Made by a program: the position numbers and the translations under genes | NCBI GenBank assembly: GCA_963790205.1 | Contig: CAWBNQ010000003.1 | Coordinates: forward strand, 288,001 to 352,000 | DNA: 64,000 nucleotides | Origin: Nitrospirota bacterium | GTDB taxonomy: Bacteria > Nitrospirota > UBA9217 | Direction: 5' to 3' | The notes under the pieces: generated by a model | Seen by the model: only the letters and a program-made list of their open reading frames with translations | The model's database searches: none | What the model was told of the DNA's origin: nothing | Shown: one piece after another, positions 96 to 31,011 of the stretch | Numbering within the stretch: position 1 is the first letter of the stretch | How the letters are laid out: each line of letters begins with the position of its first letter

Positions 96-1916
96 TCAGG
101 GATAGGTTGCATTGACGTGAACTTTGACCGTTGAGTCGGCGAAATGGCATTCCAGCGTGCAACTGCCCGTATGGTTGCCGTTGTCCGTGTAGATGGGGTA
201 CGTATTCGTTCCGGTCGGCTTCACGATCGAGGTGTCGAAATTGATAAGATGGGTGTGCGATCCCGTGGCATTGTCCGGTACGCCGTGCGGATCGTGGCAG
301 ACCGAGCAGGGGACGGGCTTATTGTCCGTCGGCGACAGAAGGTGGCCGCTGTGCCCGCCCTGGCCGGAGGTTTGCTGGAAGCTGTTGGCATTATTGCTCA
401 GGATGCTGGTCTCGTTATGACACCAGTAGCAGAGCGCGTAGTATTGAGATTGATAGGGCGCGTTATTGACCACGGTCTCGTATTCCTGCCTGACGAGCGG
501 GCTCCAGATGGAGCCGTGGGGCCCCCGGGGGCCTGAGCCCCCGATGGACGAGCTGGAATCGCTGTCGTGGCAATCGGTGCAGTAGATGATGCTTGTTGCG
601 CTCATGCCGGGGGCGTACGAGGAGGGGAAGCTCGGTATTACGGGGTTTTTCCCCGCCCCCGCGACGGGATGGTACGACGGGTTGCCCGTCTGGAACGCCA
701 CGCGCATGTCCAGGGTGCCGACAACGCGCGCAAGGGGCGTATAATAGGTGGAGTATCGCCAGCTTGAGTCCGCATGACACTTGAAGCAGATCTCATATTC
801 ATTCGACGCGTAATTCGCGGGCGGAACAAGCGGCGAGTTATTGATGTCCACTCCGCTTACCTGGGCCAGCTTGCCCGACACGGCCGGCGCCGCCGCGGTT
901 TGATTGTTCACGGCATGGGGGTTGTGGCAGTCGACGCATTCCACGTGGTTCGTTATCATCAGTGGCGATTCATTCGGTTCATGATGGTTCGCCGTTACCC
1001 CGATCTCCGTGGCCGCCACATCATGCTTGTACTGTTTGCCGAACTGCGCCTGAATATTCGTCGCTGCCACGTTTCCGTTGTGGCAGGGATAGCAGTTATC
1101 TTCCTCTTGCTGGTAGTTGAGCAGCCTCATCGGTCCGCCCGCGTTATGGGGGTTGTGGCAGCTTTCACAGCCGTTCTGCTGCACCGTCGTCCATCCGAAA
1201 TCCGTGTTGACGCCCGTCCGCGGCCAGGGGTTGGTCCCGGCATTGTTCCAGGTTTGTTGTGATGTGTTATGCGACGTCTGGTCCCATCCGCTCATCGTAT
1301 GGCACTCCGTGCACAGCCCTGAGTTGACGCTGCTTACCCTGAGGAATTTTTTGTTGGTGTCGTCGTGAGGGTCATGACAGGTGGTGCACTCTATGATCTC
1401 GTTCCCGTAGAAAACGAGGTTCGCCGGCGGCACCGGGTTGATCTCCGGGTTGGAAACCGACTGGGAATAGGAAAAAGAAATGGGGTGGTGCGACGTGAGC
1501 GAGGTGCCGAAATACGACGGACTCGACGAGGGTATCCCGCCAGCGACGTTCATCGCGATCCCGCTCGACGGCTGGACCACGTCACCGAGCGCGAGGGTGC
1601 CGTCGTGGCAGCTGAGGCAGAGCCGCGACGGCCCGGTCGGCGTCGACGACGGCGCGACCATGGTCGTGCTGGTGTAGGGGGTGTAGTTGACGGCCTCGAG
1701 CTTTTTGTTCCAGAGGGGCGTCAGCGCGGTCGCATTATGCGGGGCATGGCAGAAGATGCAGATTCTGTTTTCGGTCAGCGCCTTGATCTGTCCGGGACCG
1801 CTTGCCGAAAGGTTGTGTTTGCTGTAAACAATGCTCATTTTTGCGACGGCCGGCGGGCCCGAGAAGACGCCGGCGGCGCACAACAGCAGCGCTATGGCGC
1901 GGACATGGCTACTCAT
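96..1916 (-). CDS. Secreted multiheme cytochrome c (11 CxxCH + 1 CX3CH) with an OmcE-like N-terminal tetraheme domain
   Basis: Start reassigned to ATG 1916 (MSSHVRAIALLL..., signal peptide; overlaps the upstream stop). Motifs CIFCH, CLSCH, CTTCH, CTECH, CESCH, CYPCH, CVDCH, CFKCH, CTDCH, CYWCH, CSVCH, CTLECH. The N-terminal part (KHNLS..ICIFCHAPH..PLWN..LCLSCHDG..HHPISF..ECTTCHDPH..FLR..LCTECH) parallels 8612-9367. Confidence 0.9.
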   Translation of the reverse strand: MSSHVRAIALLLCAAGVFSGPPAVAKMSIVYSKHNLSASGPGQIKALTENRICIFCHAPHNATALTPLWNKKLEAVNYTPYTSTTMVAPSSTPTGPSRLCLSCHDGTLALGDVVQPSSGIAMNVAGGIPSSSPSYFGTSLTSHHPISFSYSQSVSNPEINPVPPANLVFYGNEIIECTTCHDPHDDTNKKFLRVSSVNSGLCTECHTMSGWDQTSHNTSQQTWNNAGTNPWPRTGVNTDFGWTTVQQNGCESCHNPHNAGGPMRLLNYQQEEDNCYPCHNGNVAATNIQAQFGKQYKHDVAATEIGVTANHHEPNESPLMITNHVECVDCHNPHAVNNQTAAAPAVSGKLAQVSGVDINNSPLVPPANYASNEYEICFKCHADSSWRYSTYYTPLARVVGTLDMRVAFQTGNPSYHPVAGAGKNPVIPSFPSSYAPGMSATSIIYCTDCHDSDSSSSIGGSGPRGPHGSIWSPLVRQEYETVVNNAPYQSQYYALCYWCHNETSILSNNANSFQQTSGQGGHSGHLLSPTDNKPVPCSVCHDPHGVPDNATGSHTHLINFDTSIVKPTGTNTYPIYTDNGNHTGSCTLECHFADSTVKVHVNATYP

Positions 1917-2949
1917 GACGGTTCCCCGTGACCTGAAACATTTGAACCCTCCGATTGTAGGTGTCGCAGACATACAAAGTGTCCCGGTTGTCCAGGACCA
2001 ACCCTGACGGCAGCCAGAATTCACCCTGGCCGGTGCCGCGCCCCCCGATCGTAAACAGGAAGTCGCCGGTCAGGCTGAAGAGCTGGACATTGTCGAACAG
2101 GGCGTCCACGACGTAAATGACGCCGGTCCTGTCCACGGCGATCCCCTTCGGCATGGAGAAATCGCCGGAACCGTCGCCATGGTGGCCGAAGGACGACAGA
2201 AAGGTCCCGGAAGCATCGAAGACCTGGATCCTGAAGTTCATGGCGTCGGTCACGTACACGCGCCCGTCGGGGGAGGCGACGATATGGGTCGGAAAATTGA
2301 ACTGCCCCTGCCGCTCGCCGGGTCCTCCGAATGAAAAGAGGAGAGTGCCCTTTGTATCGAACGCGTATACCTTGTCCGCAAGGGTGTCGACGGCGTAGAG
2401 GATCTGCCTGGTGGAGGAAAACGACAGCCCCGTGGGCCGCAGGAGGTTGTCGGCGCCGGCTTTTTTAATCGAAAAAGACGGCTCTCCGTCCCGGTCAAAC
2501 ACGTAGATCGTGCCCCTCGACGAATCCGACACGTACAGCCTCGAATCATCATCGAACGCCACGCTTACGGGGGTCCTCAGCCTGTCCTTGCGAGCGCCGT
2601 GGATCTTCCGGTATTTCCGCTCCGCGGGCACATACAGGTGCACGCACCCGCGGCCCGGATCGGCTATGGCGATCCTTTCGTCGCGTCCGATCGCCGCTGC
2701 GACGGGGCGCACGATCGTATTGTCCTCCGCCCGGTTGCCGAAGACGATGGCCTTCAAGACGTTGGGTATCGTGGTCCCCGTTTCCTTGAACCCCCTGAGC
2801 GTCCCGAGGTAGGCCGCCCGTACCCTGTTCTCCTGGTCGAGCCACCGGGGCGGCTGGTCCGCCGACTCCATGACCGGCGACCATTTTGAAGCGCATCCCG
2901 CGGCTGACAGGGCCGCCAGACAAAGGAACAGTAGCATTTTATTTTTCAT
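1909..2949 (-). CDS. NHL-repeat (6-bladed beta-propeller) lipoprotein
   Basis: Start ATG 2949 (MKNKMLLFL), lipobox AAGC; repeated NHL motifs such as FNFPTHIVASPDGRVYVTD, FSMPKGIAVDRTGVIYVVD, FWLPSGLVLD. Confidence 0.88.
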   Translation of the reverse strand: MKNKMLLFLCLAALSAAGCASKWSPVMESADQPPRWLDQENRVRAAYLGTLRGFKETGTTIPNVLKAIVFGNRAEDNTIVRPVAAAIGRDERIAIADPGRGCVHLYVPAERKYRKIHGARKDRLRTPVSVAFDDDSRLYVSDSSRGTIYVFDRDGEPSFSIKKAGADNLLRPTGLSFSSTRQILYAVDTLADKVYAFDTKGTLLFSFGGPGERQGQFNFPTHIVASPDGRVYVTDAMNFRIQVFDASGTFLSSFGHHGDGSGDFSMPKGIAVDRTGVIYVVDALFDNVQLFSLTGDFLFTIGGRGTGQGEFWLPSGLVLDNRDTLYVCDTYNRRVQMFQVTGNRHE

Positions 2950-3136
2950 CTGTTGTATAAAGCGGTCTCCAGCCGCGACCAAAAAAAGCCGTCATTCCCG
3001 AATGCCTTGACCGGGGTCCTGGCGGAACTACTCAGGCCATAACATAAAAGCCCACAAAGAGTCATTCAACGTCCAGAGACTGCTTCAGCTTTTTGTTTTG
3101 AGCCGATCCCATGCTCCGTCATTTCTTCGCGTCGTT

Positions 3137-3181: not shown

Positions 3182-3242
3182 CCTTCGTGTGAGGATTATT
3201 TTTCGTTTCTAACCCGCCCCATCCGCGGCAAGGCCGTTCCGG

Positions 3243-4256
3243 TCAGGGTTTCTTTTGCTCCCGCGGCATCGGGACATCCAGGATTTCGATCTTCGCCCCT
3301 TTTTTCAATTCCTGTTCCCACGCTTCGCGGCGTTTCCTGAGCGCGTCGGCCCTGAGCTTTTGTTCGAGAGGGCCTTTGACTTCCTCATAGGACAGCTGTC
3401 TCTCCGGCGTGTACTCGGACAGTTTCATGATGTGCACGCCGTCGCCGGTCTTTATCGCGCCGGAAAGCTCCCCCTCCTTGAGTTTCCGGGCGGCGTCATA
3501 GAGCGCGGGCTCCTTTTCTTTTTTAAGGTCGAGGTCCCGAACGATGAAGTCGCCGTCGGGAGCGAGGCTCCACGGGTTTTTGTCCTTATCAGCCTTTATT
3601 CGGGCGATGAGCTCGGCCGCTTTCTTCCTTGACGCTCCGCTGTCGAGTTTGGCCGATATGGCCACGTCGACCACGGAGACTATTTCCGGCTCGATAAACC
3701 GGCCCTTCCGGCCCTCGTATTCCTTTCGCACCTCGTCTTCGGACACGCTGACCTTCTCCGTCACTTCCTTGGCGATGATAAGCTGAAGGAGCATGCCCCG
3801 TTCCAGCCCGGAGCGAAATTCCACGTCGGTCTCGTTCCGTTTTGCCAGGAACGCGTCATAATCCTTTTGATTGTGGCCGACGAGGTAGGAAATTGCGGCG
3901 TCGATGTCCCGCTCTTTTAGATGCAACCCCTGGCGCGCCGCTTCCTGGAGCGCCAGCTCCTGGAGGACCAGCTGGTCCAGGGCCTTCCTTCGGACCTCTT
4001 CAGGCGGCCCCGGGCTTTCCCGATTGAGCGCGCTCATACGGTCCATCATATCGTGAAGCGAGCGCTGGGTTATGACCGCATCATTGACCTTTGCCACGAT
4101 GATCTTTCGCTCATCGCGCGGCGTCGCGGCCGCGCGCGGCGATATGGTTTCAGCGGCCGGGTGCAGCTTTGCGCAGCCGGCGATGACGAGAGCGGCGGCA
4201 AAAATCATGATGATGCCGGCTGTTCGAACGGGTGCTTTCACGATGTTCCTCCTCAT
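3243..4256 (-). CDS. SurA-like / PpiC-type peptidyl-prolyl isomerase chaperone lipoprotein
   Basis: Lipobox IAGC; SurA N-domain pattern (VAKVNDAVIT..ALDQLVLQELALQEAARQGL) and parvulin-like C-terminal part (LKEGELSGAIKTGDGVHIMKL..LSYEEVK). Confidence 0.85.
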   Translation of the reverse strand: MRRNIVKAPVRTAGIIMIFAAALVIAGCAKLHPAAETISPRAAATPRDERKIIVAKVNDAVITQRSLHDMMDRMSALNRESPGPPEEVRRKALDQLVLQELALQEAARQGLHLKERDIDAAISYLVGHNQKDYDAFLAKRNETDVEFRSGLERGMLLQLIIAKEVTEKVSVSEDEVRKEYEGRKGRFIEPEIVSVVDVAISAKLDSGASRKKAAELIARIKADKDKNPWSLAPDGDFIVRDLDLKKEKEPALYDAARKLKEGELSGAIKTGDGVHIMKLSEYTPERQLSYEEVKGPLEQKLRADALRKRREAWEQELKKGAKIEILDVPMPREQKKP

Positions 4257-4625: not shown

Positions 4626-6632
4626 CTAGAACAGCTTCCTGCTCAGTGTCATGTAATAATATTGAGAGTTAAGCGTTGTTTTGGTCGTTGCCAGCATGTT
4701 CTCCTGGCGGTTCAATTGCGCCCCCCCGGTGACCGAAAAGAGGCCGAGCTGCCAGGTCAAGGAGGTGTTGATGAAGACCGTATCGGAATCGAAGGTCGAG
4801 CTGGTCCGGTAATAAGAACCTCCCATAAGAAGGACCAGGTGGTCCTGGGGAAATTTCATGTCCACGCCCATGCTCGTTCCCTCGGTCGAGGTCCGGTGCT
4901 CGGCCCCCTGCAACACTGGCGTAGGCAGATAGTCCGTCACCGTATAGAAAAGGGACGCCGTGGCGTTCGTGTCCTCACCCAGGGGCGTCCGGTATGTCGC
5001 CGTTGCTTTCCGTGATTTGTAGGGGTTCAGACGGGAATCGTAATCCTGGTATTCCACGAGGCCGGAATAGGGGCCCGCGTTTACGGTCATGCCCACGGTT
5101 TTGCTCGCGGTCCGCTCCGGGCCGCCCGCGAGCGACCCGGACACCACTTCCTGTCCCATAATAAGGTAATTGAAATACGCGGCCAAAAGGTTGTCGAGGA
5201 GGTCCAGCCTGAACAGATATCCCGAAAACGTAGAGGTGAACTTCGATTGGACCGACAGCATGTACGAGGCGCGAAATTCATACACAAAGCCGGGAGGTTC
5301 CGGCGTCGCCGTGAACACGCTTACGACCGTGATCTGGATGCTGTTCCCCAGGGCGCCGGCAACGTAGTCGATCTGCGGCCGCAAGGTGATCAGGGTCCCG
5401 GTCCCCGGGTCTTTCACTTGTATCTGGATGGTGCTTGCAAGGACATTCTGCTGGACGAGCATAAAGGTCCCTGGCACCGCGGTGCTGTGCGCCTCGTTGA
5501 GGACCACCGGCGTTCCCGTTCGTTCCGAATCCGAGCTGCCGAGCTGGATGCCGGCGGTGAGCCTTCCGGTCGGGATGGTTTTCGTGTACGTGGTGCCGAG
5601 CGTCTGAGAACGGCTCGTGATTTCCCCCGACGAGGACGTGGAGGTCAGGTCGACCAGGGAGTAGTTCGTCGTCAGGCTCCGGTAAAGCTGCTGGGAAAGG
5701 GAAAACATCGTACTGTTGGACCGGTTGGATTCCTCCGTTGCCGGGCCCGAAGGGGTTTCCCCGGTCTTGTCGACCTCGTTCCGGTACGCAGTGGAAGCGT
5801 TGGCGGTGAAGTTCCACGGCAGGGCGGCGGCCAGCTGTTCCGTCCAGAAAAACGTGGTGGCCTGAAAGTCAGGAAGAAGCGGCGAGGTCTGTTCGTGCGT
5901 TATATTGTTGACGCGGCTGTCGAGGGTGAAGCCCTCATAGCGGATGTTGTTGCCGGCGGTGTATTCATCACGCGTGGTGATGCGGTCGCCCGTTGACTGG
6001 GTTTCGGAGTGCGTATACGACGCCGTATCGGTCACCACCTGCCCCTTGTAAGCGCCGTTCACGCGGTAGGAGTTCGTGTCCGCTTTGTACAGGGTCGAAT
6101 CGACGGAAGTGTCGAAATAGCTCGCCTGAAAGGAAAGAGGCCGTTGCTTGTACTTGAAAATGGCCCCCTGTTCGTCCACGGTCCCTATCAGCCCCGCGGC
6201 CCCCCCGGGCGCCCCCGGGAAGTATCTCTGCTGATGGAGCTTGAAGAGTTCGAGGTTATAGGGGTGCTCGGGGAGCAATACCGTCCTCAGCTGGTAGCTC
6301 GTCGCGGCCGCGGTCCTCGATACCCCCGTGCCGCTCTCCTCGTTCAGCCCTTCCGACAGCGATGCGTCGAATACGAGAAATCTGGGATGATATACGAAGC
6401 CGTCGGCGGCAAAGCGGACGCTTTCGGTCAATAACCTGTCATCGGAGACGGTCCTTTGGCCGCCCTGCGTGGACTGGGTGTCGTACGACTGCGCGTTCAT
6501 TTCCAGGTATCCTTCAGAATAGGTGATTGTGGGGACAAATGAAAGCTCCTCCCCCAGGGATGCCGCAGGCGGGTTCAGAAAAAAAAACACCAGCGTTGCG
6601 CAGGCAACGCCTGTGAGAGAGGTCCCTCGCAT
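4626..6632 (-). CDS. Large outer-membrane beta-barrel protein (porin-cytochrome / nanowire-export type)
   Basis: 668 aa, signal peptide, alternating Y/T/S-rich amphipathic strands, C-terminal BAM-type signature YMTLSRKLF, adjacent to cytochrome genes. Confidence 0.75.
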   Translation of the reverse strand: MRGTSLTGVACATLVFFFLNPPAASLGEELSFVPTITYSEGYLEMNAQSYDTQSTQGGQRTVSDDRLLTESVRFAADGFVYHPRFLVFDASLSEGLNEESGTGVSRTAAATSYQLRTVLLPEHPYNLELFKLHQQRYFPGAPGGAAGLIGTVDEQGAIFKYKQRPLSFQASYFDTSVDSTLYKADTNSYRVNGAYKGQVVTDTASYTHSETQSTGDRITTRDEYTAGNNIRYEGFTLDSRVNNITHEQTSPLLPDFQATTFFWTEQLAAALPWNFTANASTAYRNEVDKTGETPSGPATEESNRSNSTMFSLSQQLYRSLTTNYSLVDLTSTSSSGEITSRSQTLGTTYTKTIPTGRLTAGIQLGSSDSERTGTPVVLNEAHSTAVPGTFMLVQQNVLASTIQIQVKDPGTGTLITLRPQIDYVAGALGNSIQITVVSVFTATPEPPGFVYEFRASYMLSVQSKFTSTFSGYLFRLDLLDNLLAAYFNYLIMGQEVVSGSLAGGPERTASKTVGMTVNAGPYSGLVEYQDYDSRLNPYKSRKATATYRTPLGEDTNATASLFYTVTDYLPTPVLQGAEHRTSTEGTSMGVDMKFPQDHLVLLMGGSYYRTSSTFDSDTVFINTSLTWQLGLFSVTGGAQLNRQENMLATTKTTLNSQYYYMTLSRKLF

Positions 6633-6736: not shown

Positions 6737-7273
6737 TTATTTCAGCAAAAAGTCGTTGTCCGATCCGTGAGGGTCGTGGCACTCCGTGCATTCCATGTCG
6801 ACCGCATCCTGATGGACCTTTCGCGAGCCGACCTCAGCCGCGTCGTGGCAGGTAAGGCAGAATTGCGAAGGGTCCGCAACGAGCATAAAAGGTTTTCCCG
6901 TGCCATGGGGATCGTGGCATACGCGGCATCCTCCCGAGGCGACGGGCCCGTGTATTTTCCTTTTCCGGATGTTCAGGTCGTGGCAGTTCAAGCACAACTT
7001 TTCCACCGGCAGGATGAGCTGGTTGCTGCCGTCCTGGCGGTGGCACGCGCTGCACATCTTTGCGGCATAAGGACCGTGTTTTCTTCCGGCGCCGGTCTGC
7101 TCATCAGCCCGGGCCCTCATGGTTTTGCCCTCGGGCCCATTTGCCATTTGCTCTCCGGGCTGGGGCACGCCGTCGAAGAAAAAGCTGAGCGCCGTGTACC
7201 GCGTCTGCGGAGAACAGCCGGACAAGGCAAGCATTGCAACGGCCACCGCGGCAAGTATCAACCGCGCGAACAT
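6737..7273 (-). CDS. Pentaheme cytochrome c lipoprotein
   Basis: Lipobox LSGC; CSACH, CLNCH, CRVCH, CLTCH, CTECH with paired CxxCHxPH pattern. Confidence 0.9.
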   Translation of the reverse strand: MFARLILAAVAVAMLALSGCSPQTRYTALSFFFDGVPQPGEQMANGPEGKTMRARADEQTGAGRKHGPYAAKMCSACHRQDGSNQLILPVEKLCLNCHDLNIRKRKIHGPVASGGCRVCHDPHGTGKPFMLVADPSQFCLTCHDAAEVGSRKVHQDAVDMECTECHDPHGSDNDFLLK

Positions 7274-7276: not shown

Positions 7277-8440
7277 CTATTGTCCCTCTTTGGCAGGCCC
7301 GCCCTTGTCCGCGGCTGCTTGCTCCTTCTTTGCCTTCTCAAGTCTCGCTTTCACTTGTTCCCGGAGCTCGGCGTCCGTCGGATACGTTTTCCCCTCTTCC
7401 CTGCCCACGCCGAAAATATTGATCATCCTGATTCCGAATTGACTGACGACGATGGCCAGGTTCTCGATCTTGAATTTCGGGTCCGCGTATTGTTGAAAAT
7501 ACTTGATATTGTCGTAATCCACGATTACCTGGGCGGGAAGATTCAGGTCGCCCGGAAATCTCCCGCCCTTGCTGAAGAAGAGGAGAAGGTCTCCCTCCTT
7601 GTCGAAGATCTGCACGTTGGAGAAGGCGGCGTCCACGACGTAGAGCCGGTCATCCCGGTCCACGGTGATGCCTTTCGGACGCGCGAAGGTGCCGCTCTCC
7701 GTGCCGATCTCTCCGAGGGCGCCCAGGAAATGGCCGTCCCGGTCGAATTTTACGATTTGAAACCTGGCCATATCGGACACGAGCAGGTGCCCATCTTTGT
7801 CAAAGGCCACGTTCGTGGGCCGCCCCAACCGGTCCTCGGGCGGTCCTGTCTGCCCGATTTGTCTCAGGACGTTGCCGCTCTTTTTGTCCATGACGACGAT
7901 CTCATAGTGTTTCATGTCGGCCACGTAAAGCTCGTCTCCATAGGGCACGGCGTCGACCGGCCTCATGGTGTCTGACGAACCGAAGGCGGTGACGTAAAAA
8001 TCGTTCTTGTCGAAGACGACCACCTGTCCCCTGACCGGGTCCGCCACGTACTTGTTGCCTTCGGCATCGATGCGGATATTGACGGGCTGAAGCAGCTTCC
8101 CCAGCCCCTGGGCGCCGGCGAGATCCTCAAAGGTCCTCTTATTCAGGTCAAAGACGGAGACCCCCCGGTTTGTGTCGGCGACGTAGATTTTGCCGCCCCA
8201 GATCGCAACGCCGTAGGGCTTGTCCAGCCGCCGTTTGCTCTCCTGGGCCCCGGTGATGAACCTCTCAAAAGCGGATTTTTTACGGGCGAAGTCCTTTTCC
8301 CCCACAAAGGAAGTGAGATACTGCACCCGGGGCAGTTCAGGCGGACCGGGATAGAAAACCTTGAATATTTCCTGCTTCGGGGCCGTGGTAGCGCAGCCGG
8401 CCATGAGGGCGAGGATGATGACGATACTGAATTTTTTCAT
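7277..8440 (-). CDS. NHL-repeat beta-propeller lipoprotein
   Basis: Lipobox MAGC; NHL repeats (LDKPYGVAI, LGRPTNVAFDKDGHLLVSD, FARPKGITVDRDDRLYVVD); AGGAG RBS upstream. Confidence 0.88.
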   Translation of the reverse strand: MKKFSIVIILALMAGCATTAPKQEIFKVFYPGPPELPRVQYLTSFVGEKDFARKKSAFERFITGAQESKRRLDKPYGVAIWGGKIYVADTNRGVSVFDLNKRTFEDLAGAQGLGKLLQPVNIRIDAEGNKYVADPVRGQVVVFDKNDFYVTAFGSSDTMRPVDAVPYGDELYVADMKHYEIVVMDKKSGNVLRQIGQTGPPEDRLGRPTNVAFDKDGHLLVSDMARFQIVKFDRDGHFLGALGEIGTESGTFARPKGITVDRDDRLYVVDAAFSNVQIFDKEGDLLLFFSKGGRFPGDLNLPAQVIVDYDNIKYFQQYADPKFKIENLAIVVSQFGIRMINIFGVGREEGKTYPTDAELREQVKARLEKAKKEQAAADKGGPAKEGQ

Positions 8441-8611: not shown

Positions 8612-9367
8612 TTACTTGTCATGGCAGGTGAGGCAGATCTGGCTTCCCGTACCGGCGGGGCCGCCGTCGTCGTACGTCCAGAGGAACTTAAAGCCCTCGT
8701 TGCCCTTGTTGTGGACGGAGTGGCAGGAAACGCACTCTACATTGCCGTTCCACAGAAGGTCGTTGATGGTGAGGCCGGTGGTGCCGACGCTGCTCGAAGG
8801 ATCCATAATCCCGTCATCCACGCCCTGGACTGCAGCATAGTTGAACCCGACCGGATGATGATTGGAGAGGTCGCCGCCCGCGCCGACCTGATAGCCGGCG
8901 GGCATGGTGATGCCGCCTGCGCCTACTGTCGGGTTGCTGTCGAAGGTGCCGTAGGAGTTGACTGCAACCGAACCGTCATGGCAGCTCAGGCAAAGCTTCG
9001 ACACGCCGCCCGGTCCCGCCGAAAGGTCCGCATTCAACTGCATGGCAAGGCTGTTCGGAATGTCGCTGCCGTTCGTGTAGGAAGCATAGGAGGTGATGGT
9101 GCTCAGCGTGTGGTTCCAGAGAGGGTAGTAATTGATCTGGGTGCCTTGTACCATATCTGTTTTTCTGGCTGCGTGGTGCGGCGTATGACAAAATACGCAG
9201 ATACGGGTCTCACTAGCTTGACCCACTGCAATACCGCCAGCTCCCGTGACGCTCAAATCATGCAAAGAATCTTTAATACCCGATCCAGGAGCAACTCCAG
9301 CCATCGCAAAAGAAGCGCAGGCCAAAACCAAGCCGATCGCTAAACAAATTGAAATATACTTTTTCAT
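8612..9367 (-). CDS. Tetraheme cytochrome c, OmcE-like (candidate nanowire subunit)
   Basis: Start reassigned to ATG 9367 (AGGAG RBS; MKKYISICLAIGLVLACASFAMA signal peptide), 251 aa. Motif order HDLS..ICVFCHTPH..PLWN..LCLSCHDG..DLSNHHPVGF..VECVSCHSVH..FL..ICLTCHDK* matches my recollection of Geobacter OmcE. Confidence 0.85.
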   Translation of the reverse strand: MKKYISICLAIGLVLACASFAMAGVAPGSGIKDSLHDLSVTGAGGIAVGQASETRICVFCHTPHHAARKTDMVQGTQINYYPLWNHTLSTITSYASYTNGSDIPNSLAMQLNADLSAGPGGVSKLCLSCHDGSVAVNSYGTFDSNPTVGAGGITMPAGYQVGAGGDLSNHHPVGFNYAAVQGVDDGIMDPSSSVGTTGLTINDLLWNGNVECVSCHSVHNKGNEGFKFLWTYDDGGPAGTGSQICLTCHDK

Positions 9368-16241: not shown

Positions 16242-16242
16242 T

Positions 16243-21353: not shown

Positions 21354-22245
21354 GAAGCACCATCTTCACCGCATCAAACAGGCAGGCGGGTTTCTCCCGC
21401 CTGCCTGTTCTTTTTTCAACGGACCTCCCCGCGGCTAAAGCGCGGACTTGTGCTTGCGAAGCCCGCGAGGGAAGGATATAATTCAAGGGAACGACGATAG
21501 AAAGAGGAGCTGGAATGAGAAAACGCACACTCGTAACGATCATACTGGTATTTTTGGTCTCGCACCTGGCGCTCGTCTCGTGCAAAAAAACGGAGACCGC
21601 GGGCGTAGCGCCGTCAGCGGAGGAAGCGCACCGGACGGCGATGCTGGAAAAAAGCTTTGCAGAATCGAAAAAAGTGGTTGCCGCCCGGGTCAACGGAGAG
21701 GCCATTACCCTGTTCACCCTTTTTCGGGAGATGAACGCGCTTGCCCCCCGATACCTGGGCGCCGGCGGCCAGAGGACCCCGGAACTCGACAAGAAGATCA
21801 GGAGCGAAGCGCTCGACATAGTAATCTTCGAGGAGCTGGCCGTGGAGGAGGCGAGAAAGCGCGGCATGAAGGCGGCGCCGGAAGCGATAGAGGGCGAGAT
21901 AAGGAAAATAAAAGCGAGCACAGGCTCTCCAGCCGGTTTCCAGGAGTATCTCGACAAGAACGGCCTTACGGAAGGGGAACTCCGCAAGACGCTGGAGCAG
22001 GACGCCCTGTTTGAAATGATCGCCACGCAGGAGATCGACGCGAAGATAACGGTAACCGATGCGGCCCTCAGGGCGCGCTATAAAAAAGAAAAGACCGGAC
22101 TGAAAGACGCCGCCCACCGGCAAATGACGTTTGAGGAGTCGAAAGGAATGCTTGAGCAGAAGGTCAGGGCCGAGGCGGCGGAAAAGAGGATGCGGGAGTG
22201 GGAAAAGGAACTGAGAAAAAACGCCCGCATCGAGCTCGTCGGGCA
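21156..22245 (+). repeat. ~1.09-kb direct repeat, copy B
   Basis: Matches 13371-14460; diverges at the last codons of the chaperone gene (GQKRG* vs GQDRGQG*). Confidence 0.9.
21377..21416 (+). terminator. Intrinsic terminator after octaheme copy 2
   Basis: Identical to 13592-13631. Confidence 0.85.
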
Positions 22246-22264
22246 GGACCGCGGGCAGGGGTGA
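21515..22264 (+). CDS. SurA N-terminal-domain chaperone lipoprotein, copy 2
   Basis: Protein identical to 13730-14473 except for the last residues. Confidence 0.82.
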   Translation: MRKRTLVTIILVFLVSHLALVSCKKTETAGVAPSAEEAHRTAMLEKSFAESKKVVAARVNGEAITLFTLFREMNALAPRYLGAGGQRTPELDKKIRSEALDIVIFEELAVEEARKRGMKAAPEAIEGEIRKIKASTGSPAGFQEYLDKNGLTEGELRKTLEQDALFEMIATQEIDAKITVTDAALRARYKKEKTGLKDAAHRQMTFEESKGMLEQKVRAEAAEKRMREWEKELRKNARIELVGQDRGQG

Positions 22265-22340: not shown

Positions 22341-23141
22341 ATGAGTATTCAGCGCGCAAAAATCCCCTCCCATGCCCGGCGGTGTTTAGCGGCGATGATC
22401 GCGGCGGCTTTGTGCATCTTCACTATCGGCCTTGGTTCTTCCTGGGCCGGGCCGCCCTTCCGGACCGACGACCCGGAGCCGGTTGATCATAACCACGGGG
22501 AATTTTACGCGGCCACGCAGTATGAAAAAGACCGCGACGTTACGGCGGGAACCGCCCCTCACTTCGAGTTCAACTACGGAGTCCTGCCCGAGTTGATGTT
22601 TCACGTCATTACTCCCTTTGCATACGCCAAGCCGGAAGGAGAATCCAGACACTACGGCTACGGGGACACGGAGGTCGGGATCAAGTACCGGTTCCTGAAT
22701 AATGAGGGTTCTCATTTTATGGCCGGGACCTTTCCACTGGTGGAACTGTCCACCGGCAACAGTGATAAGGGGTTGGGTGCGGGACATACGATGTATTTTC
22801 TGCCGCTCTGGCTCCAGAAGGGGTGGGGGCCGTGGACAACCTACGGCGGCGGCGGCTTCTGGCGTAATCCGGGAGCCGGCAACAAAGACTACCGGTTTTT
22901 CGGCTGGGAAGTGCAGCGTGAAATGTCCAAGGCAGCGACACTAGGCGTGGAAGTGTTTTACAATACGAAAACCACGGAAGAGGGAACATCCCGGACCGGG
23001 TTCAATGCAGGCGCGATATTCAATTTAAGCGATGACCACCATCTGCTCTTTTCCGTTGGGCGCGACATCCATGGCGACAACCGGCTCTCGGCTTACCTCG
23101 CGTACCAGTACACCTTCGGCCCCCCGGAAGAGAAAAAGTAA
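22341..23141 (+). CDS. Putative outer-membrane beta-barrel 'transporter' family protein
   Basis: Signal peptide, then AGPPFRTDDPEPV; amphipathic aromatic-rich strands (GDTEVGIKYRF..YLAYQYTF). Start codon uncertain. Confidence 0.65.
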   Translation: MSIQRAKIPSHARRCLAAMIAAALCIFTIGLGSSWAGPPFRTDDPEPVDHNHGEFYAATQYEKDRDVTAGTAPHFEFNYGVLPELMFHVITPFAYAKPEGESRHYGYGDTEVGIKYRFLNNEGSHFMAGTFPLVELSTGNSDKGLGAGHTMYFLPLWLQKGWGPWTTYGGGGFWRNPGAGNKDYRFFGWEVQREMSKAATLGVEVFYNTKTTEEGTSRTGFNAGAIFNLSDDHHLLFSVGRDIHGDNRLSAYLAYQYTFGPPEEKK

Positions 23142-23425: not shown

Positions 23426-23441
23426 TGGCATATTAATTGCA
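23426..23441 (+). promoter_or_regulatory. Sigma54 promoter of octaheme copy 3
   Basis: TGGCATATTAATTGCA (GG-N10-GC; near consensus). Confidence 0.75.
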
Positions 23442-26169: not shown

Positions 26170-26250
26170 TTGGAGAAGAAATCAAGGCCGTGGAAAAAGG
26201 ACCTGAGGAAGAATGCCCTCATCGAGTTCGTCGGGCAAAAGCGCGGTTGA
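26170..26250 (+). pseudogene. 3' remnant of a third SurA-like chaperone gene
   Basis: 26191-26250 reads WKKDLRKNALIEFVGQKRG*, matching WEKELRKNARIELVGQKRG* of copy 1. The promoter region upstream is also retained, but most of the gene is missing. Confidence 0.8.
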
Positions 26251-26280
26251 GAAGGCCCCTGGCTGACTGAATCGACGGTA

Positions 26281-27978
26281 TCAATTCTTTAATAGATTCC
26301 GCAATACCTTGCATCCGACTTCATTTCCCAAAGCGCACCCTTTCTGCAGGTCCGGCAGGGCAAGCGCATTCTTGCCGGTTTTCAGATAGAGATAGGCGCG
26401 ATTGATGTATGCTTCCGAATTGTTTTTATTTAATTCGGTTGCTTTGTTAAAGTCCTCGAATGCCTTGTCATCACGGTTCTGCAGAAAATAAGCCACCCCC
26501 CTGTTATTATAGGCCATATCAAACCCCGGGCTGATGGAAATTGCACTACTGAAATCGTCTATGGCCGGGCCTAATTGATTTTTTTCGCCGTAGGCAAGCC
26601 CTCGATTATAAAATGCAAGAGGGACCTCCTGACGCCCCGTTTCAATAAGGTAACTCCATAACGAGATCGAATTTTTCCAAAGCCGTATCTGACTGACGGA
26701 GGCATACGACAAAAAAAGAACGATGAGGCAGCACGCAACGATAAAAAAGGATCTCATCACGACTCCCCCTCGCCTCGGGTCAAACGCTTTTCTGAAAAAA
26801 AACGTCAGTCCGATGCCGGCAATCAACAAATAGCCCAAAGTCGGCAAATAAGTATACCGGTCCGCCATTGACTGCCCTCCGACTTGTATAATGCCCAGGA
26901 CGGGAAGCAAGGTCACGACATAATACATCCATACTGCGAGCCATAGTTTCTGCACCTTTGCGACGGCCAGACAAGCGACGGTAACTCCGGCAACGAGCGC
27001 AACGAAAAAAATATATTGTAAGGATAAAAGAGAAACATCCCTGGGATAGGGATAAAAGGGAAGCAAGTCAACAGGTACAAGGACTTTGAAGAAATAAACG
27101 ATAAGAGCTTTGGCGCCCACAACCGCCCGCACTGCCAGGGTCGTATGTTCGAGAGGAACAATCGCATGGCCTGAACGTTGAGCAAGGACCGTTATCACGG
27201 AAGAAAGCAGGCTCAGGAGAAAAAAGGGGATCTTCTCCGTGAAAACAACTTTGAATGCCCGGGCCGAGGGGACCCTTCCGGCCGGGTGCCAATCCAGGAT
27301 TAAAAGAACCGCGGGAAGGGTGACCGCCATCGGTTTGCTTAATAAGGCAAGGACAAAAAATCCAAAGGCAAGAAGATACTGCTTATCGAAGAACCCGTAT
27401 GCCGGCTTCCTCCGGCCCGGTCCATTCCCGGCGGCCCTGTATTTCATATACGACAGGATGCTGAGCAGAAAAAAAAGGGCGCACAGCAGGTCTTTCCTCT
27501 CAGAAACCCATGCCACCGATTCGACATGGAGGGGATGGATCCCGAAAAGCAGGCCTGTTGTCGCCCCGGTCATTAATTTTGTTCTTTCATTCCAAAAAGG
27601 GTCCGGAGTTCCCTGCCGTCCTGTTGATTCTTCAAAAACCTCCACCAGCTTCACCACAAGAAGAACGACCACGAACGTGTTGATTGCATGAATGATATTA
27701 TTGGTCAGGTGGTGCCCGAAAGGATCAAGCCCCCATATCGCATAGTCGATTGCATGAGAGAGCCACGTAAGCGGATGCCAGTTGGCGGCATGAAAATCGA
27801 AAAATGCCCATCGGAACAGCTGCAGGTTGAATGTCCGAACAGGGAGGTTCTCATAAACATAGTCGTTGTCATCCCAGTTAATGAATCCGTTTCGGAGGGC
27901 GGGCACATAGACCAGGAAAGCAAATAGCGCGATCGAGCCCGCTACAAGGTATTTCTTATTAGTTGGCAGGTTATTCAT
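26281..27978 (-). CDS. TMTC-like GT-C family membrane glycosyltransferase with C-terminal TPR repeats
   Basis: FINWDDNDYV loop after TM1, NWHPLTWLSH, HPLHVESVAWVSERKDLL, LLSKPMAVTLP, ADRYTYLP; ~11 TM segments; TPRs (AFYNRGLAY, AYNNRGVAY, AYINRAYLY). Confidence 0.8.
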   Translation of the reverse strand: MNNLPTNKKYLVAGSIALFAFLVYVPALRNGFINWDDNDYVYENLPVRTFNLQLFRWAFFDFHAANWHPLTWLSHAIDYAIWGLDPFGHHLTNNIIHAINTFVVVLLVVKLVEVFEESTGRQGTPDPFWNERTKLMTGATTGLLFGIHPLHVESVAWVSERKDLLCALFFLLSILSYMKYRAAGNGPGRRKPAYGFFDKQYLLAFGFFVLALLSKPMAVTLPAVLLILDWHPAGRVPSARAFKVVFTEKIPFFLLSLLSSVITVLAQRSGHAIVPLEHTTLAVRAVVGAKALIVYFFKVLVPVDLLPFYPYPRDVSLLSLQYIFFVALVAGVTVACLAVAKVQKLWLAVWMYYVVTLLPVLGIIQVGGQSMADRYTYLPTLGYLLIAGIGLTFFFRKAFDPRRGGVVMRSFFIVACCLIVLFLSYASVSQIRLWKNSISLWSYLIETGRQEVPLAFYNRGLAYGEKNQLGPAIDDFSSAISISPGFDMAYNNRGVAYFLQNRDDKAFEDFNKATELNKNNSEAYINRAYLYLKTGKNALALPDLQKGCALGNEVGCKVLRNLLKN

Positions 27979-28270: not shown

Positions 28271-28561
28271 TCACACAAACTTCATCTGGACCCGGAATTT
28301 ATTCGACGATTCGACGATCCACATCACAACGCCCACTTTAGACGCGTTCCCATGGCCGAGCCGGACCCTGTCCCCGGGTTGCAACGGAACATGGGTCAGC
28401 ATACCGGTCCCGCCGCTGTCCAGGTCGATCAGGGTGCCGGTATTCCTCGGTCCCCTGAGGTGCTCATCGCCGAAGTCGGCATATTTATCGACGACAATGA
28501 ACTCGACTTCATCGGCATGCTGTTCGTTCAAAGGCGAGTTTTCCGTGTCCGCGAACGTCAT
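28271..28561 (-). CDS. Small PilZ-like domain protein
   Basis: GTLIDLDSGGTGMLTHVPLQPGDRVRL..GVVMW resembles the PilZ barrel; ATGA overlap with the upstream cytochrome; no RxxxR motif. Confidence 0.6.
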   Translation of the reverse strand: MTFADTENSPLNEQHADEVEFIVVDKYADFGDEHLRGPRNTGTLIDLDSGGTGMLTHVPLQPGDRVRLGHGNASKVGVVMWIVESSNKFRVQMKFV

Positions 28562-29901
28562 TTCTTCTTTGCCTTGCCTTTTTCCGGCGCTGCTTCCTTG
28601 CCCGGTGTTTTTCTGTCATAGGAGACTTTCTGATGACATCCCGGAGCGCAACTGCCGCCTGTGTCGGTCTTGACGAAATTCAAGGGCAAATTCCATTTGC
28701 CGAAGGGGACGCTGTTTGCGATCAGCTTGGGGTTCTCGCTGGCATGCACCATATGGCAGACCTTGCAGCGTTTGCCGCGGTCCTTCCGGTTGACATGAAG
28801 ATAATGCAGGTTCCGGTCGCCGTCCCGGAACCCCGTCGCGTAGGACGTGGTGGGAAATCTGAGCATGTCGCGGTTATGGCAGCTGAAGCAAAGCTGGAAT
28901 GAATTGTCATTGTAGGACACATAGAAGTCGGTCGAGTAGGGTTTGATCAGGTTCTTGTCGTACGGCGTCCCGTGCGGGTCGTGGCAGGCCGTGCACGACC
29001 CGTCCCTGATGGGGCCGTGGAGCACGGTCTGGTTCTTTTTGATGAGGTCCTTGTGGCAGTCGAGGCAAAGGTCCTTGCCGGCCTTCGGCAGGAGCTTCGG
29101 CGCGTCACTCGCATGGGGGTTGTGGCAGGTCGCACAGCCCCGCTCCGACTGCACCGGCGCGTGGACGCGCTTCGCAGTCTTGATCTTGTCCTGGATGTCC
29201 GGATGGCATTGAAAGCAGAGCCCGGCGCCTTCCGCGGCAAAAAACTTTTTAAAGGGGGAGCCGTGCGGGTTGTGACACGAGGTGCACCCCATTTCAAGCG
29301 CCGGGTGCACGTATTTCTTCTTGATGGCGGCCTCCATATCGCCGTGACACATAAAGCAAAGGTCAGGGGTGGGCTTGACCAGCAGGCGCTCGTTGTTCGA
29401 TTCGTGCGGGCTGTGGCAGAAGGTGCAGTCGCCCGTGGCCGCGGGTCCGTGGGCATACTTGAAGCCGATCTTGTCGGGATGGCACGAGGTGCAGAGGTCT
29501 TTCAGGGGCTGCACGAGGAGCTTCGGCTGTGCCGAGTCGTGGGGATTATGGCAGGTCGTGCACATCCCGTCTTTTACGGGCGGATGTATGTCTTTCATGG
29601 CGCCGAACTGCGTGTGACACTGATAACACAATCCGGGGACCTCCTGGGTGAGCTTGAAGGTCTTTGTCTTTTTCTGGGGGTGTGGCGTGGCGATCGACTG
29701 GTGGCACGTATCGCAGGGGTCCGTCGCCGGGTGGATATATTTGGTTTTCAACAGGTCCTGATGGCATTTTGCGGTCACGCAGCCCTGTTCAGCGGGCGCG
29801 GCAGGTGCGACGACCCCGTATGCAAAGAGAAGGGTCAGGGAAAAAAGGACCAAGAGGATCGGCAGAACAGCTATTTTTTTCATAGGCCACGATTTTATCA
29901 C
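28558..29901 (-). CDS. Periplasmic multiheme cytochrome c (13 CxxCH + CX4CH + CX3CH)
   Basis: GTG 29901 after GGAGG (ATG 29883 alternative); signal peptide; repeated paired units H.P...CxxCHxPH...LCxxCH. Confidence 0.92.
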   Translation of the reverse strand: MIKSWPMKKIAVLPILLVLFSLTLLFAYGVVAPAAPAEQGCVTAKCHQDLLKTKYIHPATDPCDTCHQSIATPHPQKKTKTFKLTQEVPGLCYQCHTQFGAMKDIHPPVKDGMCTTCHNPHDSAQPKLLVQPLKDLCTSCHPDKIGFKYAHGPAATGDCTFCHSPHESNNERLLVKPTPDLCFMCHGDMEAAIKKKYVHPALEMGCTSCHNPHGSPFKKFFAAEGAGLCFQCHPDIQDKIKTAKRVHAPVQSERGCATCHNPHASDAPKLLPKAGKDLCLDCHKDLIKKNQTVLHGPIRDGSCTACHDPHGTPYDKNLIKPYSTDFYVSYNDNSFQLCFSCHNRDMLRFPTTSYATGFRDGDRNLHYLHVNRKDRGKRCKVCHMVHASENPKLIANSVPFGKWNLPLNFVKTDTGGSCAPGCHQKVSYDRKTPGKEAAPEKGKAKKK

Positions 29902-30357
29902 TTTACGCCTCCATAACAACTAGCAAAAATTAGACCATAAGTCTGACGGGTTGAGGATTTACGCCTTTAAACGGGGGAAAACCGTCATGAAGCTCAAAAA
30001 TGTCGCCAGCCGTGGTTTTCAACCCGCCGAAGCTAATAATATTCCGTCTTTCCAGTCAGTTGACCGCTTCCTTCGTTCGTTGAGACGCCAATCATGTTTA
30101 TTTACCCAAAACAGCGGTCCGACTCGTTTCAAACGAAAAATACGGGAGGAGCAAATTCAAACCCGAGTCGGGTAAAAAATAAGCAGGCATCAGGTGATAT
30201 GACGCCACAGCAGAGTTATATCACTCCGGGGAGATAATTTCCATTCTTGATCCAGCTCTAACCTTATCGAGACATGGTCTTTGGAGCGGAAAGACGGACG
30301 CGTGCTCTCTCTCCCGAGTCGCACGCATTGGCTGGCACTCGTGATTTCCGTAATTTG

Positions 30358-31011
30358 TTATTCCGCGGGTGCCGGCGGTGGCGGCGGGGGGGGTGGCTTA
30401 TTGGGCGCCCATGTCCCCCATGGTGTTATTCTAGACTGGTCGGATGTCGCTCCAGACTGGCCGGATATCGCTCCAGACTGGCCGGGTGTCGCTCCAGACT
30501 GGCCGGCTGTCGCTCCTGGCTGACCGGGTATCGCTCCAGGCTGGCCAAGCGCTAGTTTATACACAAACTGCCATTCGCTGTACTTGGTCTTTCCTTCAAA
30601 ATCCTGGTCCTGCTCGGGAAAGTTTGCCTGCTTGAGCGGCTCTTTCTCGCTGGGGCTATATACGCCGATGATACGGTTCGTGGCGGGGTCGCGCATCTCC
30701 GTGAAGTCTTTTCCGCTGATCGGGTCTTTGTATTTCTGCCGCAGGTAGTGTGCCGAGGCGGTCTTTGGGTCCTTGACCAGATCGTCGATGCTTTGCGGGA
30801 AACCGGAATTGGCCTTCACGTATCGCGCGATAGCCGTACGGTATTGGTCGCCGCGGAAGAGTAACTCCTTCTCCTTTTCCCGGAGCGAGATATTCGACCA
30901 GTACCTGGTCGCGGCGCCCAGTGATATCCCGATGATGATGATCACGACGAGAAGGGCGAGGTAGGCGAAACCCCGGCTGCCCCAAAAGGGCTTGTACGCG
31001 AAAAGAGGCAT
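30358..31011 (-). CDS. Type II secretion / type IV pilin-like pseudopilin with low-complexity C-terminal tail
   Basis: Probable start ATG 31011; class III signal RG|FAYLALLVVIIIIGISL; EKELLFRGDQYRTAI..YLRQKYKDPI; GQxGAxx repeats and poly-Pro tail. Confidence 0.78.
   Translation of the reverse strand: MPLFAYKPFWGSRGFAYLALLVVIIIIGISLGAATRYWSNISLREKEKELLFRGDQYRTAIARYVKANSGFPQSIDDLVKDPKTASAHYLRQKYKDPISGKDFTEMRDPATNRIIGVYSPSEKEPLKQANFPEQDQDFEGKTKYSEWQFVYKLALGQPGAIPGQPGATAGQSGATPGQSGAISGQSGATSDQSRITPWGTWAPNKPPPPPPPPAPAE
30433..30546. repeat. 21-bp coding tandem repeat (~5.4 copies)
   Basis: Unit agactggccggatatcgctcc and variants; encodes GQ(S/P)GA(T/I)x on the minus strand. Confidence 0.9.

Follow-up and report, generated by a model that had tools for sequence, protein, structure and literature searches.

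A 31-kb locus in the window (the whole 64,000-nucleotide stretch of Nitrospirota DNA that was analyzed) appears to pair an OmcE-family cluster, predicted to supply an outer-membrane conduit and a cytochrome filament, with three probably secreted octaheme cytochromes that likely act at the surface as terminal oxidoreductases akin to OcwA, OmhA and MccA, a reading to which we give a probability of about 0.6. Seven multiheme genes lie within the 31 kb (Table 1), and all the genes of the earlier list are open frames in the positions given. Gene by gene the seven multiheme genes encode 11, 5, 4, 8, 8, 8 and 13 CxxCH motifs (n = 57). The 12-heme gene has an additional CX3CH, and the 15-heme gene an additional CX4CH and CX3CH, for a total of 60, as an earlier sequence-only reading had counted. 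The whole 4.34-Mb genome contains 39 frames with at least three CxxCH (247 motifs), so that 57/247 of the genomic CxxCH motifs fall within this locus.

Table 1. Features of the locus, in window coordinates.
Feature	Position	Strand	Remarks
12-heme cytochrome	96..1919	-	OmcE-like tetraheme domain N-terminal, fused to 8 more hemes; 7TFS E 1.4e-24
NHL beta-propeller lipoprotein 2	1909..2949	-	PF01436 E 3e-24; lipobox
SurA-like lipoprotein with rotamase domain	3243..4256	-	PF13145, PF13624; lipobox
668-aa predicted outer-membrane beta-barrel	4626..6632	-	unnamed family
Pentaheme lipoprotein cytochrome	6737..7273	-	
NHL beta-propeller lipoprotein 1	7277..8440	-	PF01436 E 1.6e-15; lipobox
OmcE-family tetraheme	8612..9367	-	predicted nanowire subunit; 9YUQ E 6.4e-19, 7TFS E 7e-17
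σ54-type -24/-12 motif	9561..9576	-	upstream of omcE
σ54-type motif	10111..10126	+	upstream of octaheme 1
Leader element with inverted repeat	10140..10211	+	conserved; 89% identical to 17981-18049
Octaheme 1, 1073 aa	10347..13568	+	signal peptide, Cys-rich heme-free N-domain, 8-heme core, PKD + transthyretin-like tail
SurA N-domain lipoprotein	13730..14473	+	lipobox; no rotamase domain
Membrane sensor histidine kinase	14814..16241	+	lineage-specific insert
Response regulator, REC + ArsR-type HTH	16243..16893	+	
Second REC + ArsR-type HTH regulator	17119..17778	+	
σ54-type motif	17949..17964	+	upstream of octaheme 2
Octaheme 2, 1059 aa	18174..21353	+	recent duplicate of octaheme 1
SurA N-domain lipoprotein	21515..22264	+	lipobox; no rotamase domain
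266-aa beta-barrel	22341..23141	+	PF13557
σ54-type motif	23426..23441	+	upstream of octaheme 3
Octaheme 3, 822 aa	23518..25986	+	no N-domain; head of another subfamily; 3′ half common to copies 1, 2
Relic, 3′ end of third SurA N-domain gene	26190..26255	+	86% to 14413-14478
Multi-TM + TPR protein	26281..27978	-	inferred GT-C protein glycosyltransferase
96-aa ORF	28271..28561	-	kept behind 15-heme gene in close relatives; no Pfam match
15-heme predicted periplasmic cytochrome	28558..29883	-	conserved cluster companion
Pseudopilin-like protein	30358..31011	-	GspG below cut-off; 76% paralog on C10

The core proposal of the sequence-only reading, an OmcE-type extracellular electron transfer locus with export and folding genes, is supported, as are its two NHL lipoproteins (PF01436 matches and lipoboxes in both) and its triplicated octaheme family (three paralogs with variable heads). 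The three SurA-like proteins are intact frames as claimed and bear lipoboxes, with a rotamase domain only in the first, and of the two claimed barrels the 266-aa protein passes its Pfam model while the 668-aa protein is a barrel by prediction only. The overall layout was redrawn. The genes form three blocks instead of two divergent arms, the third (26281-31011) being encoded on the minus strand and running toward the octaheme arm. That the locus is self-contained is not supported: for heme maturation, ResB is encoded at C3:857597, more than 500 kb away, and T2SS-like genes and the nearest σ54 activator are found 7-18 kb beyond the left edge of the window; a domain search of the 31 kb found no inner-membrane quinol-oxidizing cytochrome. 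The term island is likewise not borne out, with no tRNA near the locus and a GC content of 50-61% against about 55% for the genome.

The OmcE-type cluster in the left arm

Judged by its sequence, the left arm (96-9367) fits the minimal OmcE nanowire cluster, which has been published with Nitrospirota among the phyla with homologs (Petersen et al. 2026, PMC13712944). It would be a subtype whose accessory cytochromes are different and whose barrel has no detectable relation to that of the Geobacteraceae type. This comparison replaces the OmcS companion (Osc) cluster suggested at first, in which, by second-hand accounts, folding and secretion genes lie beside omcS (PMC13194489, PMC12977616); none of the seven genes here is a hexaheme OmcS-like gene. 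According to the available text of PMC13712944, the OmcE clusters of G. sulfurreducens (7TFS) and D. soudanensis (9YUQ) have in common with this locus the OmcE-family tetraheme and two beta-propeller lipoproteins and, by category, two further multiheme cytochromes, a TM-TPR glycosyltransferase-like gene and a large barrel, predicted in our case. The accessory cytochromes carry 5 and 12 hemes here and 8 and 10 in Geobacteraceae-family loci (L103-L106, L108). Unlike the Geobacteraceae-type cluster, this one has a SurA gene inside, an OmcE-domain protein in the same operon and stalked octahemes flanking it, and it lacks the resB/ccsB adjacency that the same text states for Desulfuromonadia only, resB being far away.

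The OmcE homolog matches solved OmcE over its full length (about 230 residues, four CxxCH). The four motifs and four further histidines, the latter aligning to 7TFS, are invariant in 38/38 aligned sequences, and the C-terminus ends just after heme 4, as in solved OmcE. In the OmcE-like domain of the 12-heme protein the eight OmcE histidines are invariant and a ninth (H217) is present in 105/112 homologs. The protein is a candidate base or anchor of the filament; a nine-histidine anchor is predicted in PMC13712944, which reports, in the text available, none in omcE operons. The assignment of the 668-aa barrel rests on Atlas neighbors at 0.84-0.89, 19 amphipathic 10-mers (shuffle maximum, 18) and a terminal Phe. 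The protein lacks a Pfam match (1/23 homologs matches Porin_4), and searches detected no relation to MtrB nor, with thin profiles, to the 750-aa protein that adjoins omcE of the Geobacteraceae type. In three Geobacteraceae-family loci (L110-L112), a SurA/NHL/split-12-heme module adjoins T2SS genes with 57-60% identity to the ATPase left of this window.

Could the OmcE homolog form no long filament, so that the left arm would be a short porin-cytochrome conduit and the octahemes its only outer terminals? We consider this unlikely. In its favor, Geobacteraceae-type omcE has a different barrel and different accessory cytochromes at its side, wire formation is known for only some OmcS paralogs (PMC12977616), and a second omcE paralog elsewhere in the genome has no barrel or NHL neighbor; yet all eight ligating histidines and the end after heme 4 match solved OmcE, and the barrel (predicted) and propellers that together serve as a criterion in the available text of PMC13712944 are both present. 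A point against our main reading is that G. sulfurreducens is reported, in the text available of PMC13194489, not to need OmcE for current or for the reduction of Fe(III) oxide.

Fold, stalk and ancestry of the octahemes

We found no description of this variable octaheme family in the literature searched, and no sequence-level match to OcwA, OmhA or MccA. A model of the core (pLDDT 81.9, pTM 0.83, heme-1 region of low confidence) was compared with 48,161 chains, of which only seven reach Z 2. The first three are MccA (4RKM; Z 6.7, 308 aligned, rmsd 5.1), OcwA (6I5B; Z 6.0, 280 aligned, rmsd 4.9) and OmhA (6QVM; Z 4.5, 275 aligned, rmsd 5.2), which together form clade 3 of Soares et al. 2022 (PMC9250108), and the next match falls to Z 2.5. 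All are below 8, and Z 6-7 is less than the level that the tool deems common for models without a clear match, so the modeled whole-core likeness is a weak one. Foldseek returned nothing at E 0.001; its first, non-significant row was OcwA, at Z 6.4 on re-alignment. Beta-strands at residues 361-399 of the model lie between hemes 1 and 2, the place of the extra beta-sheet domain that MccA and OcwA carry (PMC6703420, in the text available). The family also resembles these proteins in having one fewer conserved distal histidine than hemes, with seven conserved non-motif histidines for eight hemes. An open heme is nevertheless conjectural, because H309 (88/100) or M501 (94/104) could be the eighth ligand; the model contains no heme.

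OcwA and OmhA are described as surface terminal reductases in the accessible portions of PMC6703420 and PMC7829351. In contrast to the MccA clade, the octahemes have eight canonical CxxCH and, in place of a C-terminal three-helix bundle, two beta-sandwich domains; they differ further from OcwA, OmhA and MccA in the Cys-rich N-domain, the PKD and transthyretin-like tail, diderm hosts and tandem mosaic paralogs. The tail domains match PKD (4L9D, Z 11.2) and transthyretin/CnaB (Z 12.0) folds of adhesins and pilins, which are found on periplasmic enzymes as well.

The octahemes might instead be MccA- or OTR-like enzymes for soluble nitrogen or sulfur compounds that sit beside the conduit and make no contact with solids. 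MccA is the top structural row, the eight hemes follow an MccA-like order, the genome contains dsr genes, and OcwA itself is said to reduce nitrite slowly in the available text of PMC6703420. Against this, heme 8 has a canonical CxxCH, conserved in 106/106 rows, instead of the CX15CH or CX17CH of MccA (PMC9250108), the helical bundle is absent, the stalk is of adhesin type, and the family follows two unrelated outer-membrane conduits. We regard such a soluble-substrate role as improbable.

The octaheme copies are mosaics with divergent heads and homogenized tails. Copies 1 and 3 share 37% identity in hemes 1-4, 75% in hemes 5-8 and 88% in the tail; hemes 1-4 of copy 3 group with paralogs of other genomes (100/99) and its hemes 5-8 with copies 1-2 (96/86). 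Tails from other genomes reach only 23-42% identity. Four-fold sites are identical at 72/77 positions in the tail versus 17/40 in hemes 1-4, and four other genomes repeat the pattern (heads 31-44%, tails 57-84%). Gene conversion would keep the stalk shared as the heads drift apart, so that a single mount could carry different specificities. The two SurA N-domain genes beside copies 1 and 2 differ at 8/744 nt.

That the octahemes are precursors like pre-OmcZ, whose two Ig-like domains are cut off before the core polymerizes as a second type of nanowire, is the least probable reading: the outline of signal peptide, octaheme domain and tandem C-terminal beta-sandwiches is common to both (PMC9473688, in the text available), and triplicated nanowire paralogs are known in Geobacter (PMC12977616), but the core has about 590 residues versus about 260 in mature OmcZ, the structural matches are the non-filament OcwA and MccA, the tail is the part most alike among copies, and no OzpA-type or other S8 subtilase was found in the 98% complete genome (PF00082, 0 matches; 8/14 control genomes positive). 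Neither OmcZ nor OmcS is among the matches listed in the sequence and fold searches.

Genomic company of the octahemes and a proposed electron route

An omcE-like gene lies near the octaheme in 29/69 family loci, downstream on the same strand in 19 and divergent in 8, whereas 22/69 loci with long flanks have no omcE. Among 24 omcE-less loci examined, 10 have a DmsE/MtrA-family decaheme above cut-off (four with a strong MtrB) and 14 have no visible conduit; many of these loci are kin, so the counts overstate independence. In L021, L028 and L050 mtrA-mtrB is followed by the octaheme gene, third in the operon and in the place of MtrC, although the octaheme has no match to the OmcA/MtrC family model. 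The presence of omcE or an MtrA-family decaheme nearby suggests a surface terminal role.

The pairing of OmcE with octahemes, at first taken for an unrecognized combination, recurs across several phyla, and in several Acidobacteriota loci the family stands just upstream of omcE. The octaheme is not required, since in several relatives (L016, L096, L097) its position opposite omcE is taken by a large cytochrome that has the same tail but is otherwise unrelated. Fiorito et al. 2026 (bioRxiv 10.64898/2026.05.27.727921) report EET1 and related porin-scaffold-cytochrome clusters of Acidobacteriota, transcribed in peat; the models, OmcE-like and OcwA-like, have 8-13 hemes. Their main text, to which the comparison is confined, does not mention Nitrospirota, Binatia, PKD or nanowires, and the preprint may cover a similar cluster, perhaps including this pairing.

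Under the reading of octahemes as surface terminals of an OmcE cluster, the 15-heme protein would carry electrons across the periplasm, and the 5-heme lipoprotein, 12-heme protein and 668-aa barrel would pass them through the outer membrane. OmcE would polymerize outward with the aid of the NHL and SurA lipoproteins, and the TM-TPR protein would glycosylate it. The octahemes would be folded with help of their own SurA N-domain partners, likely exported via the neighboring T2SS, and held out on the PKD and transthyretin-like stalk to exchange electrons with an extracellular partner, perhaps through one heme, by analogy heme 2, whose sixth ligand the protein does not supply. They would then be alternative surface contacts for electrons moving to or from the outside of the cell. 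A bolder version, which we hold as a speculation with somewhat long odds, is that this locus supplies an OmcE wire with both of its ends: the 12-heme base and interchangeable OcwA-like octaheme terminals that plug into OmcE or MtrAB conduits, with variable heads on a gene-converted uniform stalk that vary already between near-identical strains. If true, diderm bacteria of several phyla would have a modular terminal for extracellular electron transfer that can be retargeted.

Third block, local regulators and promoter motifs

The TM-TPR protein has eight hydrophobic segments and a WDD motif, and only its TPR part finds matches. The membrane part matches nothing in Pfam or the PDB, so the GT-C glycosyltransferase label given earlier is inferred; the protein may be TMTC-like. 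It has eight paralogs in the genome, and homologs stand beside Geobacteraceae-type omcE in L103, L104 and L108. The 96-aa ORF is presumably PilZ-like. The 15-heme cytochrome has a strong homolog in 18/80 related loci. The sensor, the DNA-binding domains of both response regulators, the 266-aa barrel and the pseudopilin are present in the window as first listed, and are found in 0/80 related loci (some of which overlap); they are non-conserved parts of the locus, and the pseudopilin-like protein is probably not a fixed member.

The leader element has no Rfam match and folds no better than shuffles. The σ54-type pattern, picked after the sites had been seen, has four matches in 64 kb, one per cytochrome unit (chance, 0.40), and occurs upstream of 18/57 octaheme genes and 10/26 omcE genes versus 2/166 other genes. 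With a site of its own, each of the four units is likely switched separately.

Layout of the cytochrome region

Six-frame translation recovered every gene listed in the sequence-only reading, and its 60 heme motifs in seven multiheme genes are confirmed as 57 CxxCH and three longer motifs. The two divergent arms that it described are instead three blocks (see table). Genome-wide, 39 multiheme frames hold 247 CxxCH motifs, and the seven window frames account for 57 of these. At a probability of about 0.6, we read the region as follows: the OmcE-type cluster (block 1, the left arm) would provide conduit and filament, and the three octahemes would be stalked OcwA-like terminals, each under its own control and with alternative heads.

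Coordinates of features in the window and in compared loci. Positions without a handle are window positions; L and G handles are loci and genomes of relatives or of the window's own genome (G000, with contigs C1, C3, C8 and C14)
Feature	Coordinates	Strand	Description
Block 1	9367 to 96	minus	operon order omcE, NHL, 5-heme, barrel, SurA, NHL, 12-heme
Block 2	10347-25986	plus	three octahemes, SurA N-domain genes, kinase, two regulators, small barrel
Block 3	31011 to 26281	minus, convergent	pseudopilin, 15-heme, small ORF, TM-TPR protein
Tandem repeat	30430-30546		21-bp repeat within low-complexity C-terminus of pseudopilin
Long ORF	54921-59216		1431 aa, lower-GC stretch (about 50%)
Cys-rich N-domain of octahemes	10347-11216, 18174-19100		residues 29-290, heme-free, short CxxxGGxW repeats
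Leader element	10140-10211, 17981-18049, L032:8747-8861		inverted repeat, directly 3' of sigma54 site
Region just left of window (L018)	G000:C3:270500-287773		T2SS-like cluster, sigma54 activator, IS91-like transposase with integrase; 1265-aa repeat surface protein (relative of similar size on C1)
Second omcE paralog (L088)	G000:C8:219894-220742		47% identical; flanked by K+ transporter and REC-Lon protein
dsrA (L102)	G000:C14:63709-64855		in two frames in this assembly beside intact dsrB-like frame; assembly error or pseudogene
Cytochrome pair	G000:C1:398911-403267		10-heme and 9-heme cytochromes, then weak MtrB-like frame; possible second conduit in window genome
Tail-bearing protein	L015:3181-14154		heme-free, 3657 aa; C-terminus is the octaheme PKD + transthyretin-like tail (39-41% identical)
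Recurrent pair	L011:14687-18802, L016:11413-15624, L014:8646-13100		164-167-aa one-CxxCH protein, then 1200-1310-aa cytochrome without evident signal peptide; possibly split or recoded gene

We also considered a mobile island, against which stand the lack of a tRNA and ordinary GC content. An IS91-like transposase and an integrase are encoded 4-7 kb to the left of the window.

The OmcE-type arm and a candidate anchor

By category, the left arm fits the smallest OmcE cluster outlined in the accessible text of PMC13712944: OmcE, two beta-propeller lipoproteins, two multiheme cytochromes and a large barrel. The same text reports OmcE-cluster homologs from Nitrospirota, and glycosyltransferase and TPR genes that often come after the cluster. 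This kind of cluster is therefore already described, and the left arm is a variant of it that forms a distinct subtype. OmcE-like genes are present in 75 of the 301 genomes of the phylum and in 16 of 17 genomes of a Geobacteraceae-type family, of which only 3 of 17 match the profile of the 668-aa predicted outer-membrane barrel. Five of ten loci taken from that family differ from the window in having 8- and 10-heme cytochromes, a single NHL gene adjoining omcE and a 750-aa protein, for which no profile similarity to the window barrel was found; another of the ten (L107) is of the window's cluster type. Three of these five loci are flanked by homologs of the TM-TPR protein, a putative GT-C glycosyltransferase; this favors a link between it and OmcE despite eight TM-TPR paralogs in the window genome. 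No barrel or NHL gene lies beside the second omcE paralog.

The window tetraheme aligns with both solved OmcE structures across its length, and its eight His are invariant in 38 of 38 aligned sequences. Set beside this alignment, a short conduit without a filament is an unlikely reading of the left arm.

The 12-heme protein starts at its N-terminus with an OmcE-like domain. All 112 full-length homologs keep the eight OmcE His, and 105 of them have a ninth His ten residues past heme 4. Judged by these residues, the protein would fit the anchor proposed in PMC13712944, an OmcE-like protein with nine His; according to that paper, omcE operons show no candidate for an anchor or a tip. The ninth His may simply be the ligand of a later heme. 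In three loci (L110-L112) the 12-heme module is encoded as separate tetraheme and 7-heme genes (L111: broken into two frames) with an NHL gene. It adjoins T2SS genes, and their ATPase shares 57-60% identity with the ATPase encoded 9-11 kb to the left of the window. This adjacency to T2SS genes resembling those left of the window makes export by T2SS plausible.

The octaheme family and the conduits it accompanies

Using residues 290-900 as a query, we found 227 family members among 8000 scored candidates, with exactly eight CxxCH in 100 of the best 120. In an exhaustive search, 312 cluster representatives passed E 0.001 and 105 passed 1e-30. The family is rare in the phylum (7 of 301 genomes, four candidates scored per genome). 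Its members have a median of 16 non-heme Cys and seven conserved non-motif His for eight hemes, with two other conserved residues as possible eighth ligands.

PDB sequence and profile searches matched the tail domains alone and no solved structure for the core; no Atlas cluster was found at 0.9 or more. Because the tail, modeled as a PKD domain and a transthyretin/CnaB-type sandwich, swamped fold searches of the core-plus-tail model, we folded the core alone. This model reached Z of 2 or more with only 7 of 48,161 chains, the best being MccA (6.7), OcwA (6.0) and OmhA (4.5) over 275-308 residues, followed by unrelated chains at 2.5 or less; Foldseek gave a non-significant match. According to the accessible parts of two papers, MccA, OcwA and OmhA form a single clade (PMC9250108), and MccA and OcwA both have an additional beta-sheet domain and leave heme 2 open (PMC6703420). 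The core model places strands between heme 1 and heme 2, but lacks the helical bundle, and its Z values are middling. The octaheme is probably a distant relative of OcwA and OmhA, outside their family, and we file it as likely working like them.

Among 69 octaheme loci of GTDB genomes, 29 have an omcE-like gene within their flanks, 27 of these together with barrel or NHL genes, in counts that take no account of the kinship of many of the genomes. The omcE gene is downstream on the same strand in 19 (Binatia, Acidobacteriota, Margulisiibacteriota, Deltaproteobacteria and some Nitrospirota), divergent from the octaheme in 8 (Nitrospirota) and arranged otherwise in 2. No omcE-like gene was seen in the flanks of the other 40 (22 long, 18 short). 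Ten of 24 omcE-less loci examined have an adjoining decaheme above the DmsE/MtrA cut-off, and four of these ten also have a strong MtrB match. As the family accompanies two unrelated outer-membrane conduits, the octaheme is best read as their outer terminal. That the octahemes are instead enzymes for soluble N or S oxyanions, in a genome that does carry dsr genes, is improbable. Least likely is a second, OmcZ-like wire: no subtilase was found in the window genome. OmcZ, like OmcS, OTR, HAO and NrfA, is absent among the matches listed in the wide fold search of the core, although this absence is not an exclusion.

Other large cytochromes (7 to 34 hemes) with the same tail lie opposite omcE in five loci (L013, L014, L016, L096, L097), and in L011 two family members alternate with two other large tail-bearing cytochromes; the slot therefore appears to serve stalked surface cytochromes generally. 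A reading of the shared tail as a signal dedicated to secretion has two points against it: PKD and transthyretin-like domains are common, and the tail profile also matches one short frame and repeats in three large proteins without hemes. On one contig of a relative (L012-L014, G005:C12), the same core cluster lies between cytochromes of 21, 32, 34, 12 and 11 CxxCH, several with an octaheme-family core first and the same tail last, with repeated SurA genes and IS-like frames nearby. In L066 the octaheme-omcE unit is tandemly repeated: three octaheme frames lie next to omcE, and two omcE proteins are identical.

A peat preprint (Fiorito et al. 2026, bioRxiv 10.64898/2026.05.27.727921) presents, in its accessible part, models resembling OmcE and OcwA from clusters of Acidobacteriota; its supplements may cover the same OmcE and octaheme pairing. 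Our literature search, with most subscription journals outside its scope, found no paper on the octaheme domain set or on this combination. The window contributes a context of two conduits, mosaic heads, a nine-His candidate inside the operon and a set of putative promoters. For the question of how cytochrome nanowires start, end and hand over electrons, this cluster type gives named candidates for start and end, with anchor and tip candidates together in one locus and each expressible. It would also widen the range of OcwA-like surface reductases, characterized in thermophilic Gram-positive bacteria, to uncultured members of Nitrospirota, Binatia and Acidobacteriota, and would give annotators a rare family marking outer-membrane conduits of two unrelated kinds.

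Putative promoters and mosaic octaheme copies

A sigma54-type motif, in a pattern defined after the sites had been seen, occurs four times in 64 kb, once upstream of each cytochrome unit (0.40 by chance; 0/100 shuffles). At other loci it precedes 18 of 57 octaheme genes and 10 of 26 omcE genes, compared with 2 of 166 other genes. The local regulators contain no activator domain; the window genome encodes more than 20 activators, of which one lies roughly 8 kb to the left of the window. The leader element is 73% conserved in another genome; a riboswitch reading of it is not supported, as it has no Rfam match and folds no better than shuffled sequences (z = -0.45, -1.53, 0.24).

Over 1.65 kb spanning the tail and SurA gene, copies 1 and 2 share 97.5% identity; upstream, their identity is much lower. 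The head of copy 3 belongs to another subfamily (37% to copy 1) and groups with paralogs from L038, L055 and L059 (100/99), and its 3' half clusters with those of copies 1 and 2 (96/86 for hemes 5-8; 99 for the tail in a quick tree). These trees contain 25 hand-picked rows, and that of the tail carries a long-branch warning on wider placement. Four-fold sites are identical at 72 of 77 positions in the tail versus 17 of 40 in hemes 1-4. The same head-to-tail gradient is seen in the tandem pairs of L024, L025, L038 and L055, whereas L069 has a plain recent duplication. The simplest account of such mosaics is gene conversion or 3' exchange. Duplication and rapid change of multiheme genes are well known (PMC12977616, accessible part), and variable heads on a constant stalk would make a natural series for studying what sets acceptor specificity.

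An assembly artefact as the source of the copies is rejected on two grounds. Their 5' halves differ strongly, and the unique parts of copies 2 and 3 are also covered by contigs that come from two further samples of a single study and carry the SurA repeat at about double depth, none of them spanning the whole. Among these related-strain contigs, a piece over the copy 1 promoter is unmatched from 10493 and extends about 800 letters, a weak hint that the copy 1 head may vary between strains.
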